Shown here: piece after piece, positions 1,374 through 43,230 of the stretch
How positions within the stretch are numbered: position 1 is the stretch's first letter
Layout of the letters: every line of letters begins with the position of its first letter
From: Candidatus Aenigmarchaeota archaeon LH_S7
GTDB lineage: Archaea > Aenigmatarchaeota > Aenigmatarchaeia > QMZS01
Assembly (NCBI GenBank): GCA_023659895.1
Contig: JAGXOL010000005.1
Coordinates: 1-47,206 of the forward strand
Length of the DNA stretch: 47,206 bases
Direction of reading: 5' to 3'
Position numbers and translations under genes: made by a program
Notes under the pieces: model-generated
Seen by the model: the letters and a program-made list of their open reading frames with translations, nothing else
What the model was told of the DNA's origin: nothing
Databases searched by the model: none

Positions 1374-1647
1374 TGTGGGGCTAGCCTGGGCTGTTAGGCG
1401 TAGCCTGTAACCTGAAACTGTCGAAATGCAGGAGGTGAAAACCCTTGGGCGGTAGCTAAAACATCAAGAGCCTCTCTAATTCAACTACGAAGTTCAGCCT
1501 TAGGAGGTGGTACTTTCTGTGAATCCCCCAGGCCCGGAAGGGAGCAAAGGTAAGCAGAAAATACTATGCTTCTAAGTTCACTGAATGGAGGCGAGTTAGG
1601 GAACAAGTTTTTGGTGTTCTGGCTATCCACTAGGGGAAAGCCCTACA
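1374..1647 (+). ncRNA. ffs: Archaeal SRP (7S) RNA
   Basis: GC-rich island in AT-rich DNA. Helix-8 signature CAGGCCCGGAAGGGAGCA at ~1529-1546. 5' TGTGGGGCT pairs with 3' AGCCCTACA. TATA-like TTTAAATA at 1339-1346. Confidence 0.92.
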
Positions 1648-1731
1648 CAAACCGTTTGATCCAAAAAAGTATTTTTGGTTAATAAAAGGATTTTTCCTTC
1701 AACTAAATTTAAAATATTTTATTGATGTTAT

Positions 1732-2061
1732 GGGCTCGTGGTGTAGCTAACCCTTTTTTGATGCAATCTTTTTAAGGTTGCTGAAAAACGGTCTATAATG
1801 GTTTAGCATCGGGGCTTAGGGTGGTACACTATAGGTGTTAAGCTCGCCAAATGGGTGAGGTATCAAAAAAAGCCTCAGACGGGAGTTCAAATGGAACTTT
1901 TAGAAAAAGTTCCATCAAAACAAGCTTTTAAAAAAGCTTGAGCAAAAAAGGGACTTTTAGAAACCTCGAAAAACAAAGTTTTTCGGGCCACATAAACCTT
2001 CGGTTTATGAGGAAGTTCCAGCAAAAAGCTCTTACATAATATGGAAATCTCCCCGAGCCCA
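1732..2061 (+). tRNA. tRNA-Pro with three introns: D-loop 1749-1798, anticodon loop ~1822-1870, T-loop 59/60 1892-2047. Anticodon reads AGG (UGG under an alternative two-intron parse)
   Basis: Acceptor GGGCTCG/CGAGCCC, anticodon stem GGGGC/GCCTC, T stem GGGAG/CTCCC. BHB central helices GTAG/CTAT (D loop) and TTCA/TGGA (T loop) with 3-nt bulges. The anticodon-intron BHB is relaxed. Confidence 0.85.
1893..2027 (+). repeat. Array of hairpin+CAAAA modules inside the tRNA-Pro T-loop intron
   Basis: GGAACTTTTAGAAAAAGTTCC-ATCAAAA; CAAGCTTTTAAAAAAGCTTG-AGCAAAAAA; GGGACTTTTAGAAA[49-nt insert]AAGTTCC-AGCAAAAA. Confidence 0.9.
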
Positions 2062-2164
2062 AAAACAAGTTTTTCGGAGCCCATAAATCTTTGGTTTATG
2101 AGGAAGTTCCATCAAAACAAGCTTTTAAAAAAGCTTGAGCAAAAAAGAAAGGTTTGATCCAAAA
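2061..2164 (+). repeat. Same hairpin-module array as the 3' trailer of tRNA-Pro
   Basis: AAAAACAAGTTTTTCGG..CATAAATCTTTGGTTTATGAGGAAGTTCCATCAAAACAAGCTTTTAAAAAAGCTTGAGCAAAAAAGAAAGGTTTGATCCAAAA matches the intron modules. Confidence 0.9.
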
Positions 2165-2184
2165 TAAAAACTTATTAAAATCTT

Positions 2185-3990
2185 TTAAAGTTCTTCTTTA
2201 ACACCTATCTTAGGATAAACACCCATTGCCATCATCTCATCTATAGCCAACTTGAAGGCATAAGACATCTTCACTCTAGTAATCTCTGAAGTATTACAAA
2301 TAGGACAATAACTCAATCCCTTTATTTTGTTTTCAATTGCTACAACACCACACTTCTTGCAAACAGGTACTTCTTCCTCATCTGAACTAAATCTTTCCTT
2401 CAAAGTCAAAGCTGCACCATGAGCTAACAAACAATCCTTTTCCATTTCACCAAAACGTAATCCTCCTTGCCTTGCCTTACCTTCTGTTGGCTGCCTTGTT
2501 AAAATTGTTGTAGGTCCACGAGCTCTCATGAAATATTTATCCCTTACCATATGATACAAAGCTTGGTAATAACAAGGTCCTATCAAGATGTTTGCTTTCA
2601 GTTTTTCCCCCGTTTCTCCATTATACATTTCTTCTACTCCAGATTCATCAAAACCCTGTTTTTTCAAAATATCTGAAATCTTGCTTTCAGAAGATTCATA
2701 AAAAGGGGTACTATCCATGATTTCCCCATTAATAGCTGCAGCTTTTCCATAAACTAATTCCATTAATTGACCAACAGTCATTCTTGATGGGATTCCTAAA
2801 GGATTAATAATTACATCAGGAGTTATCCCTTCTTCTGTAAAAGGCATGTCTTCTTCTGGTACTACAGATCCTATAACACCTTTCTGACCATAACGAGAAG
2901 CAAACTTATCACCTATCTCAGGTATTCTTGTTTCCCTTATAGTTGATTTAACAAGTTTGTCACCATTCTCTGTCTGAGTAATTACAACTTTATCAATTAT
3001 ACCACGCTCTCCAAACTTAACAGTCACAGAAGTGTCTCTCCTATTTTCTGCCTCAGACAAAAATTCTTCCATTGGACCATAGAATCTCAAAGGAGAAACC
3101 TTACCCAAAATAATGTCTCCTCCTTCAACTTCTGATTCTGGTGGGGCAACCCCCTCCTCATCCAAAAACCTGTAATCATATTTTGTCTTGTAATTTTTCA
3201 CACCTTCATCAGGTATGGTAATTTCATCACTCTCAATGGACCAGTACTTCTTTTCTTCTGCTTGGTAAGTTCTGAAAAAGGTTGACCTAAATAAACCTCT
3301 TTCAACAGAATTCTTGTTCATAACTATAGCATCTTCCATATTGTAACCCTTATAAGGCATTATAGCAATAACAATGTTCTGTCCTTGAGGATGTTCACTA
3401 AGAATATTTGACTTGTAGATAACAGTATCCACAATAGTATGTTGAGGATAAATTAAATTATAAGTTTTTGTATCAGGTCTCAAAAGATAATTTATAGCAT
3501 AAGTTCCTAAAGCCTGGCTCATCATTTTAGCACCATAGTTAACTCTGTCTGACCTGTTGTGAACTGCAAATGGAACCATGGAAGCAGATACACCTAATAT
3601 TACTGCAGGACTCAACTCAAGATGTGTATGTTCCTCATTCAATTCTTTAATATTCAAAGCTATATAAGCATTTTCTTCCTCTTCTGAATCCAAATATTCT
3701 ACTACTCCCTCTTCAACTAAACCTTGTAAACCTAATTCACCATTTGCTATTCTCTTTAAATGATCTTCTGTAAGTAAAGGGTTTCCGTTCTTGACAATAA
3801 TCAAAGGTCTTCTCAACCTGCTGTTGTCTGTGTTGATTCTTATTTCAGCAATTTCCTCAAGATAAGTAATATTTGTTTCTTGAGAAATCTCATTTTTTCT
3901 CCTTTTATCCTTTAGTGCATCCACAAAAGTTTTTGGTTTTGTTGTTCCCCCTACTAGAACCCCATCAAAAAATACTCTCACATTTACCAT
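2185..3990 (-). CDS. rpoB1: DNA-directed RNA polymerase subunit B' (C-terminal half of Rpo2)
   Basis: GYNMEDAIVMN, GDKFASRYGQKG, RQPTEGKARQGGLRFGEMEKDC, Zn finger, SYAFKL. Likely ATG at 3990, next to the rpoB'' stop. Confidence 0.96.
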   Translation of the reverse strand: MVNVRVFFDGVLVGGTTKPKTFVDALKDKRRKNEISQETNITYLEEIAEIRINTDNSRLRRPLIIVKNGNPLLTEDHLKRIANGELGLQGLVEEGVVEYLDSEEEENAYIALNIKELNEEHTHLELSPAVILGVSASMVPFAVHNRSDRVNYGAKMMSQALGTYAINYLLRPDTKTYNLIYPQHTIVDTVIYKSNILSEHPQGQNIVIAIMPYKGYNMEDAIVMNKNSVERGLFRSTFFRTYQAEEKKYWSIESDEITIPDEGVKNYKTKYDYRFLDEEGVAPPESEVEGGDIILGKVSPLRFYGPMEEFLSEAENRRDTSVTVKFGERGIIDKVVITQTENGDKLVKSTIRETRIPEIGDKFASRYGQKGVIGSVVPEEDMPFTEEGITPDVIINPLGIPSRMTVGQLMELVYGKAAAINGEIMDSTPFYESSESKISDILKKQGFDESGVEEMYNGETGEKLKANILIGPCYYQALYHMVRDKYFMRARGPTTILTRQPTEGKARQGGLRFGEMEKDCLLAHGAALTLKERFSSDEEEVPVCKKCGVVAIENKIKGLSYCPICNTSEITRVKMSYAFKLAIDEMMAMGVYPKIGVKEEL

Positions 3991-3991
3991 A

Positions 3992-5476
3992 TTATAATTT
4001 CTCTTTAACAAAATTTAAGATGTTTTCTCTTTCTTTATCAGACACCCCCTTTGATATAGAAGCTAAAGTTGCCAAATGTTTTCTCAAACCAATGTTAATA
4101 CCTTCTGGTGTTTCTTGGGAACAAAATTTTCCCCAATGAGTTCCATGTAATTCACGAGCTTCAGGATGTTCCTGAGAAGAAGATAAAACTGAAACAACAG
4201 CTCTCATATTTGAAAGTCTTCTAATATAGTTCACACGGTCCAATCTTTGAGTTATTCCAACTCTTCCTCCTACCCATTGACCTGTGGCAAGTGCTGAAGC
4301 AATTCTCTTTGTTATGTAATTAGACTCAAACAATGCTTGCAAAACAGGATTCTTCTTTCTTTTGGTTAATCTTTGGTAATTGTATTTTATTCTACTTGCA
4401 AGTCCGTTTTTACCTAAAAGCAAGGACCTAAATAAAATATCCAGATAATAGCCTGTTAGTCTTATTCTCTTATTTGCTAAATGGTCTATATCATCTCCCT
4501 TATGAATATCTAACCCAACTTTAATCAACCTATTTGCAACATGTGCAAGATAAATTGCTTTGGTCTTTTGATTTTCAGAGGTAACACCTAAGTGATGTAA
4601 TAAGAAATTGTTCAATAGATTTTGTACTCTTTCTTCAGGAGTTTCCTTACCCATCCCCCTAACAAATTTCTCAAGATATTGTAAGGCATCATTTTGACTT
4701 CTTACTTCTTCAAATTCGTAAATGTTTGTTAAAATTTCCTCATCCATCTTTGAGGTGTCTGAAATAGACTCAACTATTTCCTTGTCTGTTTTTAAACCTA
4801 AGGCACGTAAAACTACAATCAAAGGAACATTTCTTAAATTTGAGAAATTCATGTATAAAATTCTATCTCTTCTTTCAATCATGTGTCTCTGTATGTATTG
4901 ATTCTTCTCTGAGTTTATTCTTGCCATCTCAATACCTTTCTTTTCTTCTTTGGTTATCACCATCCTATTGTTTGCTACTTCCTCTACTCCAACAAGGATC
5001 TTCTCTGTTCCATTAACCAAAAAGTATCCTCCTGGGTCATAAGGATCCTCTCCAATGTTAATTAACTCTTCCTTGCTTAGATTGTGTGTAGGATCCAATG
5101 AAGAACGAACCATTATTGGAAAATCGCAAAGTTTTATCTTTGTTGGCTCTTGATGTACATCATTCACAATAGGTACAACATTAACATAAAGTGGGCAAGT
5201 ATAACTTAAGTTTCTTATCATAGCTTCCATTGGAGTGATAACTCTTTCACAAACATCTGCTTCCCTGAGAACAGGACTACCAAACTCAACTTTCCATAAA
5301 AGAACTTTAAAATTCTCCTCAAGAAGTATATATTCTATTTCATCAACAATCTTTTGTACACCCTCCTTAACAAATTTGTTAAATGATTCAATATGGTAAT
5401 TTATAATAATGCTGGAAAGGTCTTTCTCTATAATATTTTTAAATCCCTCAAACAGCTTATTGTCATTCACAGTCAT
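3992..5476 (-). CDS. rpoB2: DNA-directed RNA polymerase subunit B'' (N-terminal half of Rpo2)
   Basis: HIESFNKF, GEDPYDPGGYFLVNGTEK, DHLANKRIRL, ARELHGTHWG..ETPEG.NIGLRK. Confidence 0.96.
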   Translation of the reverse strand: MTVNDNKLFEGFKNIIEKDLSSIIINYHIESFNKFVKEGVQKIVDEIEYILLEENFKVLLWKVEFGSPVLREADVCERVITPMEAMIRNLSYTCPLYVNVVPIVNDVHQEPTKIKLCDFPIMVRSSLDPTHNLSKEELINIGEDPYDPGGYFLVNGTEKILVGVEEVANNRMVITKEEKKGIEMARINSEKNQYIQRHMIERRDRILYMNFSNLRNVPLIVVLRALGLKTDKEIVESISDTSKMDEEILTNIYEFEEVRSQNDALQYLEKFVRGMGKETPEERVQNLLNNFLLHHLGVTSENQKTKAIYLAHVANRLIKVGLDIHKGDDIDHLANKRIRLTGYYLDILFRSLLLGKNGLASRIKYNYQRLTKRKKNPVLQALFESNYITKRIASALATGQWVGGRVGITQRLDRVNYIRRLSNMRAVVSVLSSSQEHPEARELHGTHWGKFCSQETPEGINIGLRKHLATLASISKGVSDKERENILNFVKEKL

Positions 5477-5718
5477 GGTATAACCACCCTATAATATAAA
5501 TAAGTTTGATTTGTAGACACAGATTCTCTTTTTATCTCTATAATATCTCCTTCTTCAGGATTTAAGTTTTTTATAGCAGGGTCAGTTTTTTTTATCCTTG
5601 GGAACTTTTTTTCTCTGACATTGTATTTCTTCAGTATTTCTGTTTTTTCCTCTTCACTTAACTTTCTGTGTTCTGGAACCAAAACATGTTTTTCCACTTC
5701 AAGATCCTTCTTTGCCAT
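5473..5718 (-). CDS. rpoH: DNA-directed RNA polymerase subunit H (Rpo5)
   Basis: HVLVPEH..LS, FPRIKKTDPA, GDIIEIKRES...YYRVV. Overlaps the rpoB'' start (ATGA). Confidence 0.96.
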   Translation of the reverse strand: MAKKDLEVEKHVLVPEHRKLSEEEKTEILKKYNVREKKFPRIKKTDPAIKNLNPEEGDIIEIKRESVSTNQTYLYYRVVIP

Positions 5719-5744
5719 AATATTCTTTGTTAAAAACTTTCTTC

Positions 5745-5974
5745 TTTTGGATCAAACCTTCATTTTTTGCTCAAGCTTTTTTTAAAAGCTTGTTTTGATG
5801 GAACTTCCTCATAAACCTTAGGTTTATGGGGCCCCGAAAAACTTGTTTTTCGAGGTTTCTAAAAGTTCCTTTTTTGCTCAAGCTTTTTTTAAAAGCTTGT
5901 TTTGCTGGAACTTTTTTTAAAAGTTCCCCTCTTTTTTTGCTGGAACTTTTTTTAAAAGTTCCCCTAAAAGGTTT
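5745..5974 (-). repeat. Long hairpin-module array forming the 3' trailer of tRNA-Lys
   Basis: On the minus strand: AAACCTTTT-[GGAACTTTTAAAAAAAGTTCCAGCAAAA x2; CAAGCTTTTAAAAAAAGCTTGAGCAAAA; GGAACTTTTAGAAA[insert]AAGTTCCATCAAAA; CAAGCTTTT..AGCTTGAGCAAAA]-AAGGTTTGATCCAAAA. Confidence 0.9.
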
Positions 5975-5977
5975 GTA

Positions 5978-6137
5978 TGAGCCCGACGGGATCTTCTTTT
6001 TGCTTGAGCTTTTTTCTAAAAAGCTCATTCGAACCCGCGACTTTCAGGTGTCTTCTTTCATAGAGGCATATATTATTTACCCTCAAAACTTTTAATAATA
6101 AAAGCCTGACGCTCTAACCAGACTGAGCTACGGGCCC
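5978..6137 (-). tRNA. tRNA-Lys(UUU) with two introns (37/38: 6050-6098; 59/60: 5992-6027)
   Basis: GGGCCCG-TA-GCTCAGTCTGGTTAGAGC-G-TCAGG-CTTTTA|intron|A-CCTGA-AAGTC-GCGGG-TTCGAA|intron|T-CCCGT-CGGGCTC-A. BHB helices CTTT/GAAG and TTCG/AGAA. Confidence 0.92.
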
Positions 6138-6181
6138 ATAAATTAGGAAAAAAGTAATTTATTATTTACTTAATCAACAAA

Positions 6182-6238
6182 TTTTTTGCTTGTTTCTAAA
6201 AAGGTTTCTTGTTTGGATGAAACCTTTTCTAAAGGTTT
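6182..6238 (-). repeat. Short hairpin-module trailer of tRNA-Ser
   Basis: Minus strand AAACCTTTAGAAAAGGTTT-CATCCAAA plus a degenerate second module ending AGCAAAAAA. Confidence 0.7.
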
Positions 6239-6548
6239 CGCTGGGGAAGGGAATCTCAAACATTTTTCTTTTGGAGTTGGTAGATCTCTCTTTGGAACTT
6301 CCTCATAAACCTTGGGTTTATGGGGCCCCGAAAAACTTTGTTTTTCGAGGTTTCTAAAAGTCCCCTTTTTTGCTCAAGCTTTTTTAAAAGCTTGTTTTGA
6401 TGGAACTTTTTCTAAAAGTTCTATTTGAACCCTTGCCTCCAAAAAGGAGACCAGCTCTCCAGGCTGGCGCCTTATTCCGTAGCCATTTCTTTTTTGATAA
6501 GAGTTCTAAGGTCCAAGAAAAAGCTTGACCGGACTCGGCCACCCCAGC
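6239..6548 (-). tRNA. tRNA-Ser(GGA) with two introns (D loop 6475-6526; 59/60 6253-6423)
   Basis: Acceptor GCTGGGG/CCCCAGC with G73, anticodon arm CCAGC-CTGGAGA-GCTGG, long variable arm CTCC-TTTTT-GGAG, T stem AAGGG/CCCTT. BHB helices CCGG/ACGG and TTCA/TGAG. Confidence 0.92.
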
Positions 6549-6588
6549 ATAAATTAAAATTTAATTTAATTTAAATCTCAAAAAGATT

Positions 6589-42033: not shown

Positions 42034-43215
42034 TTGACACTCTCCACAAAGTCGGGAGATTCTGATGTCATATTGCATCAGTTTCGGGCAAAGTCAAGGT
42101 TGCCCCGTCTTCCAAGATATACCCAGAAGACAATTTATTACCTATATTGAAAGCACCATTTATATCTGCATTAAAGTCTTTTAGTCCACAAACAGAACAA
42201 TTGAAAACTCCCTGCCTTGGTCTTGAGCCTTCAATACCACATTTGGAGCAGGTATGACTTGTTCCCCTTTCATTCAATTTAATTACCCTTATTCCATTCC
42301 AATTTGCTTTGTATTCAAGCATTTGGGTTAACTCCAGATAAGGCATATTTGAAACAATCTTATTGAAGTTTCTGCCTTTCACTGAACTTCTAATCCCTTT
42401 CAAATTCCCCAACACAATTACAGAGTTATTGGTCTGTGCAAACTCTATAATCCTATTAGAAATATTATGGAGACAATCAGTTACTTTTCTTTGTTCTTTC
42501 TGTCCAAATCTTTTTATTTCCTTTAACAGTTTCTTTTCACCAAGTTGCTTCCTAATATAGTCGTATTTTCTTCTTATTCCTCTGACTTCTTTGCCATAGA
42601 ATTTAGGAGTCATTAAAGCAGAGGGTTGCATCACTGATACTCCCATATACTTCTGTCCTAAATCAAGACCAAGAATAGAGTCATAAGTATTATTTAGTTC
42701 AACTTCTTTTTGAACTGTTAGATTTAAAAACCAATTATTTTTCTTTCTAAATAGTTTGGATTCACAAATCTCATAATCTTCAAAGAGAAAAGGTTGTGAT
42801 TTAATTGCTAACTTTAAACCACCTGCCCTCTGTTTAGTAGGTATTTTAACCCAATATTTAGATAGTTTGTTATCTGTTTTCCTAATCTCTAATAAATCTT
42901 TTCTAAAGGATATTGGATATTCTTTATTTGGTTTAATCTTTTTGTAAAATCTTAAGGCTTGTTGTATATTTGCAGAATAAATCTTCTTTTTAAGAGAATT
43001 GTAAATAGGTAGAGAACCTAATCCAAATTTTTCTAATTGTAGCAGTTCTTGTAAATTGTTATTTTCTTTGTTTAAATGTTTTAGTTTTAATTCTGTTGGC
43101 TTTATTATCTTGCATTTAACTGTTTTTCTGACCCTAACCATATTTAATTATTGTTTTTAAATTATTTTAAGGACAATTCATCTCCACAATTAAATTCGGG
43201 AGTTTTCTTGCCTTT
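42034..43215 (-). mobile_element. IS200/IS605-family (IS1341-type, tnpB-only) element
   Basis: Left-end hairpin CAAGAAAACTCCCGAATTTAATTGTGGAGATGAATTG (~43173-43211); right end AATCTCCCGACTTTGTGGAGAGTGTCAA ending at 42034. The exact left boundary is uncertain. Confidence 0.8.
42068..43141 (-). CDS. tnpB: RNA-guided endonuclease TnpB
   Basis: RuvC-I GLDLG; VLGNLKGIR; LEYKA..G; ERGTSHTCSKC; F.CSVCG; RuvC-III NADINGAFNI. Confidence 0.93.
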   Translation of the reverse strand: MVRVRKTVKCKIIKPTELKLKHLNKENNNLQELLQLEKFGLGSLPIYNSLKKKIYSANIQQALRFYKKIKPNKEYPISFRKDLLEIRKTDNKLSKYWVKIPTKQRAGGLKLAIKSQPFLFEDYEICESKLFRKKNNWFLNLTVQKEVELNNTYDSILGLDLGQKYMGVSVMQPSALMTPKFYGKEVRGIRRKYDYIRKQLGEKKLLKEIKRFGQKEQRKVTDCLHNISNRIIEFAQTNNSVIVLGNLKGIRSSVKGRNFNKIVSNMPYLELTQMLEYKANWNGIRVIKLNERGTSHTCSKCGIEGSRPRQGVFNCSVCGLKDFNADINGAFNIGNKLSSGYILEDGATLTLPETDAI

Positions 43216-43230
43216 GGTTAATTATAATCG

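Follow-up and report, generated by a model that had tools for sequence, protein, structure and literature searches.

In Thermoproteales, tRNA introns depend on a bulge-helix-bulge (BHB) motif, and the sections of the work considered here attribute their gain to DNA-level events of unknown mechanism (PMC4090602). In the passages covered here, a study of ARMAN-2 describes a relaxed (hBH) intron at position 59/60 of pre-tRNA-Cys, together with DPANN endonucleases of the alpha4 type that consist of one unit and carry an L3 loop, and notes that tRNA sets are not fully predictable where genomes are small and many tRNA genes are disrupted (Kaneta et al. 2018, PMC5829648). Here, we describe a family of hairpin repeats in Candidatus Aenigmarchaeota archaeon LH_S7 that makes up 3′ trailers of tRNA genes and T-loop inserts with the features of BHB introns. 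The window, by which we mean the whole stretch of DNA analyzed, is a 47,206-nt contig (JAGXOL010000005.1; C52) of a metagenome-assembled genome (MAG; GCA_023659895.1) that comprises 740 kb in 56 contigs, has 32.6% GC, and is 85% complete. Its genes for tRNA-Pro, tRNA-Lys, and tRNA-Ser all carry both kinds of sequence.

Like the transposed introns of Thermoproteales, near-identical introns occur here in nonhomologous tRNAs, and at more than one position (D-loop and 37/38 as well). The Pro and Ser 59/60 introns share 95% identity over 136 nt, in agreement with the near-identity reported in the initial annotation. Unlike the Thermoproteales introns, those described here are modular hairpin arrays, position 59/60 dominates, the same modules form 3′ trailers, and the basic unit is common to distant archaea and non-tRNA sites. 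With ARMAN-2 and other DPANN, this genome shares the 59/60 position, a one-unit endonuclease, a small genome, and many disrupted tRNA genes; it differs in its repeat family and intron expansion, neither of which is described in the passages of PMC5829648 covered. There is also some likeness to the scattered tRNA fragments and DNA-level intron gain in the parts of PMC3293823 (2012) considered, to which a nested pseudo-3′-exon and a duplicated Lys 3′ half (see below) may be compared. In contrast to that system, no recombinase-bearing insertion lies at these loci, and the inserts are short hairpin repeats.

Outside tRNA biology, the closest parallels are repetitive extragenic palindromes (REPs) and the related BIMEs and REPINs of Bacteria, which, in the sections of the sources considered, are likewise short, transcribed, covarying, noncoding palindromes that are clustered and have a conserved flanking motif (PMC2817692, PMC12306157, and a 2023 bioRxiv preprint). 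The present units differ from REP/RAYT systems in having neither a RAYT/Y1 transposase nor a 5′ GTAG; their flank is a 3′ A(T/G)C(C)AAAA, and they form direct tandems, not inverted doublets. REPs generally differ between species, whereas nearly the same sequence is found here in distant lineages, and in this genome it is confined to tRNA genes. Archaeal miniature inverted-repeat transposable elements (MITEs) and palindrome-associated transposable elements (PATEs) derived from IS200/IS605 are also small, nonautonomous, and hairpin-bearing, and TnpB-like genes are present in this genome. However, the units have no link to TnpB genes, no terminal repeats beyond the hairpin, and no target duplication that could be seen by eye.

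The tRNA set comprises candidates passing the head and tail filters of a scan for acceptor and T-arm pairing, supplemented by inspection. This yielded 35 tRNA genes: 25 with an insert at 59/60, 2 at 53/54, 2 at 54/55, and 6 without a T-arm insert. Many also carry D-loop or 37/38 introns, some of which contain units. Standard finders miss most of these genes: ARAGORN, in its bacterial or intron mode, detects none of the three in the window and 6 genome-wide, and the Rfam tRNA model 11, against at least 35 by pairing and inspection. Thus, such genomes look poor in tRNAs although they are not.

Sequence evidence provides good support for identifying the 59/60 inserts as BHB introns of the archaeal endonuclease type, made of hairpin repeats. 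Splice-motif scoring covered the 23 inserts from the automatic scan. In these, four intron bases (YGRR), placed exactly two bases before T60, form pairs with bases 54 to 57 of the T-loop, which read TTCA or TTCG. At this predicted register, the central helix has a mean of 3.65 of 4 pairs; 15 of the 23 inserts are fully paired, and all 23 have at least 3 pairs. Shifting the register to 12 other offsets lowers the mean to 2.39 or less and leaves none of the 23 fully paired. The partner starts with C in 4 of 5 cases where base 57 is G (TTCG) and with T in 11 of 18 cases where it is A (TTCA). One bulge consists of A58-A59 plus one variable intron base, the other of two intron bases plus T60 (AA+T in 21 of 23). 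Once the insert is taken out of the sequence, each of the 23 has a T-loop of 7 nt (TTCRAAT), a paired T-stem of 5 bp, and an acceptor stem of 7 bp. For the three tRNA genes of the window, the pairing scan returned the intron coordinates and lengths initially proposed; all three inserts are placed after the sixth T-loop base.

In the proposed splice motif, the T-stem would serve as the outer exon-exon helix and the unit hairpin as the intron-side helix. Intron base 2, one past the predicted 5′ cut, is where the 9-bp hairpin of the first unit begins. Since other sequence separates this hairpin from the central helix, the motif would be of the relaxed kind. The partner of the central helix is the near-universal T-loop TTCR, so that one cassette fits any tRNA, which would explain how 59/60 inserts came to occupy 25 of the 35 genes. 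By contrast, an intron at 37/38 must pair with the anticodon. The genome encodes one alpha-type splicing endonuclease of 223 amino acids with both domains (PF02778 and PF01974), as well as an RtcB ligase (564.6 bits). The endonuclease (L061:1129-1797, C33) has a 47-residue, Lys/Glu-rich N-terminal extension ahead of its Pfam domains.

A pattern search for 5-bp perfect outer arms around a T-run and A-run found 10 hairpins in the 47-kb window, starting at 1893, 1921, 2118, 5772, 5879, 5907, 5942, 6005, 6220, and 6375. All lie within 1884-2146 or 5763-6403 and none elsewhere in the window, where the initial annotation had noticed none either. A repeat search likewise gave long matches among the Pro, Lys, and Ser regions. 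An A(T/G)C(C)AAA tail follows on the tRNA sense strand in all 10. In an alignment of 11 units, of which 6 come from the window and 5 from elsewhere, both partners vary at 3 of the 9 stem pairs and 98.9% of cells are paired, compared with 37 to 70% in slid-partner controls; the arm variants are thus compensatory, as first described. These counts would be the same for a DNA palindrome, so that they demonstrate a hairpin while leaving the RNA and DNA levels undistinguished. Units also stand directly after the 3′ ends of all three tRNA genes. The reported trace beside the signal recognition particle (SRP) RNA holds up too: its 3′ flank contains GTTTGATCCAAAA, which reads as a 3′ arm plus tail, the same as in CAAAC-type units.

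The units match no Rfam 15 family at the gathering threshold, which only the SRP RNA passes in the window, and permissive Rfam scans of the units gave merely chance-like matches far below it. A literature search, with supplementary tables outside its reach, found no paper describing such a repeat or intron family. Both results accord with the initial view that this is not a described system.

For a genome-wide census, four seeds were defined by their coordinates: A, with GGAAC arms and ATCAAAA; B, with CAAGC arms and AGCAAAAAA; C, of 77 nt; and D, the 43-nt 3′ end of an intron. As nhmmer with single short seeds returned no matches, blastn-short was used instead, at 70% or more seed coverage. 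We detected 66 module copies: 30 of A, 16 of B, 17 of C, and 3 of D. Introns of tRNA genes contain 43 of them, and 17 lie within 400 nt 3′ of a tRNA end. The other 6 occupy two tRNA-derived loci, one an intron at a contig edge that runs into a tRNA 3′ exon, the other a partly duplicated Lys 3′ half. The family is therefore tied to stable-RNA genes in this genome, as had been proposed, with 66 of 66 copies tRNA-linked and located only in parts that would be lost through splicing or 3′ processing. One extra, partial copy of C is intergenic (C11:44464-44511). A covariance model of the 30-nt unit (R1) has 40 matches in this genome, and all 32 among those listed fall in tRNA-linked loci. The claim that units are always in sense orientation is correct for the window (10 of 10) but not for the genome, where 55 are sense and 5 antisense. 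The 17 copies of module C are roughly 85 to 98% alike, judged by eye in the alignment, with differences mostly in loops; this suggests recent spread. A 14-mer repeat map shows that the genome has other repeat families as well.

The introns appear to have grown and been shuffled. One intron (C54:31757-32036) contains, in decayed form, the intron end, 3′ exon, and trailer of a different tRNA, with ~80% identity across 72 alignment columns, and this nested pseudo-exon is evidently a DNA-level footprint. A second locus (C22:52895-53025) is the partial duplicate of the Lys 3′ half, together with its trailer and the first codons of an rpoH-like gene; it has no tRNA 3′ exon, and the join falls inside a unit hairpin. 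Two Leu-type genes with an identical 24-nt 5′ start and identical T-stem and acceptor 3′ strands have inserts of 215 versus 72 nt. Similarly, Lys(TTT) has a 36-nt insert and Lys(CTT) none. Short 59/60-type inserts of 10 to 40 nt were found in 15 of 16 genomes of the same family (40 pattern matches versus 6 in a reversed control). In one of these (G009), the insert of a GGGCTCG-type tRNA is 14 nt long and has a 3′ end identical to that of the Pro intron (...ATATGGAA, then ATCTCC across the junction). The long modules were found in no other genome among 41 searched. We infer that short 59/60 introns are old and family-wide, and that repeats filled them later in this lineage.

Table 1. Predicted features around the three tRNA genes and the SRP RNA of the window.
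Feature	Position	Strand	Evidence
Archaeal SRP RNA	1374-1647	+	Rfam RF01857, 146.5 bits
Half unit 3′ of SRP RNA, GTTTGATCCAAAAAA (3′ arm + tail)	1648-1662	+	Read from sequence
tRNA-Pro gene, three introns, anticodon reads AGG	1732-2061	+	Acceptor/T-stem pairing scan; exons by eye
tRNA-Pro D-loop intron, approximate boundaries	1748-1793	+	By eye
tRNA-Pro 37/38 intron, 3′ end = hairpin + GTATCAAAAAA, approximate boundaries	1822-1870	+	By eye
tRNA-Pro 59/60 intron, 156 nt: bulge nt, units A and B, module C, 3′ part with TGGA+AA	1892-2047	+	Central helix 4/4 pairs
Unit A (GGAAC arms, ATCAAAA tail)	1893-1920	+	Pattern search; model R1, 51.1 bits
Unit B (CAAGC arms, AGCAAAAAA tail)	1921-1949	+	Pattern search; blastn-short census
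Module C, an A-type hairpin with nested two-hairpin insert	1953-2030	+	Census; alignment
tRNA-Pro 3′ trailer: 3′ part of module C, unit B (2118-2146), degenerate unit ending GGTTTGATCCAAAA	2062-2164	+	Repeat search; pattern search
tRNA-Lys 3′ trailer: units A, A, B, module C, B, degenerate unit	5745-5977	-	Repeat search; pattern search; model
tRNA-Lys(TTT) gene	5978-6137	-	Rfam tRNA model, 26.9 bits; pairing scan
tRNA-Lys 59/60 intron, 36 nt: one unit (TGAGC arms, AGCAAAAAG tail) + AGAA+GA	5992-6027	-	Central helix 3/4 pairs
tRNA-Lys 37/38 intron, approximate boundaries	6050-6098	-	By eye
tRNA-Ser 3′ trailer: unit with AAACC arms + CATCCAAAC tail, then second weaker hairpin	6182-6238	-	Pattern search
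tRNA-Ser gene	6239-6548	-	Pairing scan
tRNA-Ser 59/60 intron, 171 nt: units A and B, module C, 3′ module ending TGAG+AT	6253-6423	-	Central helix 4/4 pairs
11th unit, one mismatched outer pair	6393-6422	-	Imperfect unit

Contigs from a DNA run, which may share the window's sample, bridge junctions between exon and intron and between exon and trailer. In the Lys trailer, one such contig is 36 nt shorter (5894 to 5931), that is, by one unit, which may reflect k-mer or assembly collapse. The Pro anticodon loop (1816-1821) reads TTAGGG with exon boundaries set by eye, giving anticodon AGG with A34, an A34-type anticodon that is, to our knowledge, unusual in Archaea.

While 59/60 splice-motif introns built from tRNA-linked hairpin repeats are well supported, the nature of the unit is less settled. 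We give about an even chance to the unit being a selfish or neutral palindromic repeat, akin to REPs or MITEs, that survives in discarded RNA and was recruited as the intron-side helix. In a gene-dense genome, such repeats would persist only where processing discards RNA, that is, in introns, 3′ trailers, and rRNA or SRP spacers. Arrays would grow and shrink by slippage and unequal recombination, and units would pass between tRNA loci by DNA-level recombination or gene conversion via shared units. The recruited repeat would then have become a "universal" T-loop intron cassette. Oligo-T runs terminate archaeal RNA polymerase, and the antisense strand of the units carries T5-T7 runs; sense orientation presumably prevails because these runs would terminate the polymerase inside the pre-tRNA. 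Recombination among copies needs no dedicated enzyme and fits the nested pseudo-exon, yet it leaves the near-identical unit in distant lineages unexplained.

Several points weigh against this repeat hypothesis or against the intron model on which it builds. The unit hairpin is separated from the central helix by a stretch, unpaired or structured, of 8 to more than 100 bases, and cutting of so relaxed a motif by a one-subunit endonuclease is a prediction. Among contigs from an RNA run, only one was found, over the SRP RNA (1388-1643), and none covers the tRNA loci. Five antisense copies with T-runs lie inside introns (e.g., C11:11569-11671), which weakens the argument from terminator avoidance. 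The copies share descent, and counts are hence not independent; given the draft state of the MAG, unit numbers in arrays could also be misassembled. The flanks read by eye have no consistent target-site duplication; one locus (L016) has ~30-nt direct repeats on both sides. Searches for Y1, TnpB, and RVT_1 found no enzyme that would mobilize the units. Furthermore, the inner stem and ANCAAAA tail are nearly invariant in very distant Archaea, which a conserved reader would explain more readily than a passive repeat would.

Such a reader is the core of the foremost alternative, to which we assign roughly half the weight of the repeat hypothesis: the unit would function in cis as an RNA signal that some factor conserved in Archaea reads as a removal or decay mark or as a 3′-end definition of stable RNAs or mRNAs. 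Its presence in introns, trailers, and spacers would then, at the same tentative level, reflect use instead of tolerance. The distribution of the unit speaks for this. The exact pattern AACTTTTNNNAAAAGTTNNATCAAAA, with the outer arms left free, occurs in more than 120 stretches of species-representative genomes. Among 80 records listed, 77 are labeled archaeal, from methanogens, ANME-1, halobacteria, Thermoplasmatales, and several small-genome lineages. The free arms are complementary in 78 of 84 listed matches and comprise 10 different arm dinucleotides. Model matches number 89 in a cultured Methanobrevibacter genome (G150) and 10 to 21 in four other distant archaea. A scan of 150 genomes of the same class with model R1 (E ≤ 0.01) found the unit in 69. 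We examined the best-match loci of 25 genomes by eye, with Rfam checks in part, and ~16 of these units lie in or beside tRNA genes, in D-loop, 37/38, or 59/60 introns or in trailers. In the introns of these relatives, the unit begins 0 to 2 nt after the 5′ splice site. Elsewhere in relatives, units abut tRNA 3′ ends and occur in rRNA spacers and intergenic DNA, and one lies 157 nt upstream of a 23S rRNA 5′ end. The genome with the most copies (47) has units behind a 16S 3′ end, behind stop codons and tRNA ends, and ahead of start codons. In relatives, the basic unit is hence not restricted to stable-RNA genes, and the initial proposal needs widening.

Other aspects of the same distribution argue against a signal. 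Copy number varies from 0 to 47 within the one class, with 81 of the 150 genomes having no match and the carriers 1 to 47 copies each. The 47-copy genome has units in both orientations, and in one relative, by rough open reading frame calls, ~10 sense and at least 5 antisense units lie beside genes. Many Methanobrevibacter copies form AT-rich intergenic tandem arrays with a period of 39-40, 62, or 85, in which the spacer is itself repeated (L281-L290), and tandem arrays of identical copies resemble repeat expansion. In addition, no candidate reader protein is known, and Rfam has no family for the unit. A more explicit version, that the hairpin plus AUCAAAA is a conserved archaeal tag for RNA to be cut off or degraded, or for 3′-end formation, co-opted here as a T-loop intron helix, is in our view doubtful, at perhaps one chance in several.

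The surroundings of the unit in other genomes contain further recurrent sequences. In distant archaea (L109, L127, L135, L149, L152, L164, L166) and in G084 (L013, L041, L044), a second motif, (A)TGCTTCGCGGAAA or GCGNNNNCGGAAA, stands 0 to 3 nt after the unit, which hints at a larger composite element. One locus (L018, in G088) has tandem tRNA 5′ fragments (AGCCCCGTAGCCGTAG), each followed by a unit, just upstream of an apparently intact tRNA start. In MAGs labeled Methanosarcinales or Methanobacteriota (L111, L119, L132, L133, L136, L139, L140, L167-L169), the unit lies inside a longer repeated block with CCCGAAGGG-type hairpins on either side; this is a modular array like that of the present genome, but with other partner modules.

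Scans of mobile-element and environmental collections gave less consistent results. The pattern occurs in 68 virus-labeled IMG/VR contigs, some with giant-virus MAG tags, in tandems with a period of 29 or 38. Of 88 matches there, just 33 have complementary arms; these contigs may hold the same element, misbinned archaeal DNA, or a look-alike, and we draw no claim from them. Some of these arrays (L225, L230, L231, L249, L257, L274) have a TAAAC/AAAAC-type version of the motif, sometimes just upstream of ATG. A metagenome scan with an 18-nt piece of module C gave 31 single matches, all of 18 to 24 nt, about the number estimated by chance. Searches of phage and plasmid collections by blastn found no match, although the low-complexity filter may mask matches.

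It is improbable that the unit is a DNA transcription element, either a palindromic promoter similar to a TFB recognition element (BRE) and TATA box or, on the other strand, an oligo-T terminator. Its core (CTTTTAGAAAAAG / CTTTTAAAAAAG) does look TATA-like in our reading, and in one relative and some virus-labeled contigs an ATG follows the T-run at ~28 to 35 nt. The antisense strand also bears a hairpin plus T5-T7 runs, and some copies are antisense just after gene or tRNA ends. Yet none of the 35 tRNA genes has a unit upstream; the upstream sequence instead has a different A/T box and, in 34 of 35, a conserved TAT just ahead of +1. Units are also found in introns, where a promoter or terminator would be harmful, and their outer arms covary freely, which indicates a hairpin and not a fixed half-site read by protein.

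The upstream region of the tRNA genes has features of its own. In 34 of 35 genes, (T/A)TAT stands right before +1 (1729-1731, 6138-6140, and 6549-6551 in the window), and G is the first base in all but one. These features point to a promoter at a fixed distance, from which transcription would begin at, or close to, the mature tRNA 5′ end. Loss of RNase P, an idea prompted by this TAT, was set aside in view of a full-length, subthreshold match to RNase P RNA (C30:1875-2164; 55 bits against a cutoff of 84). Mimicry of a tRNA minihelix or of CCA, mimicry of the 3′ end of 16S rRNA (h45 plus GAUCA), and a role as exosome-loading A-tail were considered as well, and we claim none of these.

Derivation of the units from IS200/IS605 as REP- or PATE-type elements, moved by a Y1 transposase or RAYT via the hairpin plus TCAA/TTGAT, is about as improbable as a role in transcription. 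A hairpin with a conserved flanking tetra- or pentanucleotide does resemble the ends of REPs and IS200/IS605 elements, and the genome has 10 TnpB-like genes. Spread by an HUH (Y1) transposase had been suggested initially, but PF01797 has no candidate in this genome and no match in the three relatives richest in units (G084, G046, and G023). Across the 150 class genomes, the unit and PF01797 do not track each other (both, 14; unit only, 55; transposase only, 13; neither, 68), on the assumption that both scans covered identical genomes. TnpB-like genes are absent from the same three unit-rich genomes, and by coordinates the units here are not adjacent to TnpB copies. The GTAG and inverted doublets of REPs are absent as well. 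The TnpB-like genes, of Cas12f1-like zinc-ribbon type, are themselves a repeat family unrelated to the units, with copies in the window (42034-43221) and at C11:38149-39333, C11:50253-51417, and C44:31359-32530.

We consider it very unlikely that the introns are retro-mobile, such that excised, possibly circular molecules would enter BHB-like sites of other tRNAs by reverse splicing and then return to DNA as copies. The same cassette does occur at the same position in many tRNAs, elsewhere the unit is always at the intron 5′ end, and the endonuclease and RtcB are encoded. However, no reverse transcriptase (RVT_1) was found in this 85% complete genome, contrary to the suggested retro-route. Trailer and intergenic units cannot arise by reverse splicing, and the nested pseudo-3′-exon and trailer speak for events at the DNA level. 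Finally, DNA-run contigs do break and cross-join at repeats, and one is a unit short, but it is barely credible that the arrays are assembly artifacts of a repeat-rich MAG, as the 35 tRNA genes lie on many contigs with matching acceptor and T-stem halves across the inserts, short contigs bridge the junctions, and other assemblies have the same architecture.

For intron gain, our results offer a checkable rule for why one position would sweep through a tRNA set: the central helix forms on the invariant T-loop. The set of loci also provides snapshots of intron growth, from ~14 to more than 200 nt, and of exon and trailer shuffling. The 30-nt unit would be either an unusually successful repeat with no known mobilizing enzyme or an unrecognized RNA signal, and either would be new. 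If it is a conserved tag, it would represent a new class of archaeal RNA-processing signal. Cultured carriers exist, with ~89 copies in Methanobrevibacter.

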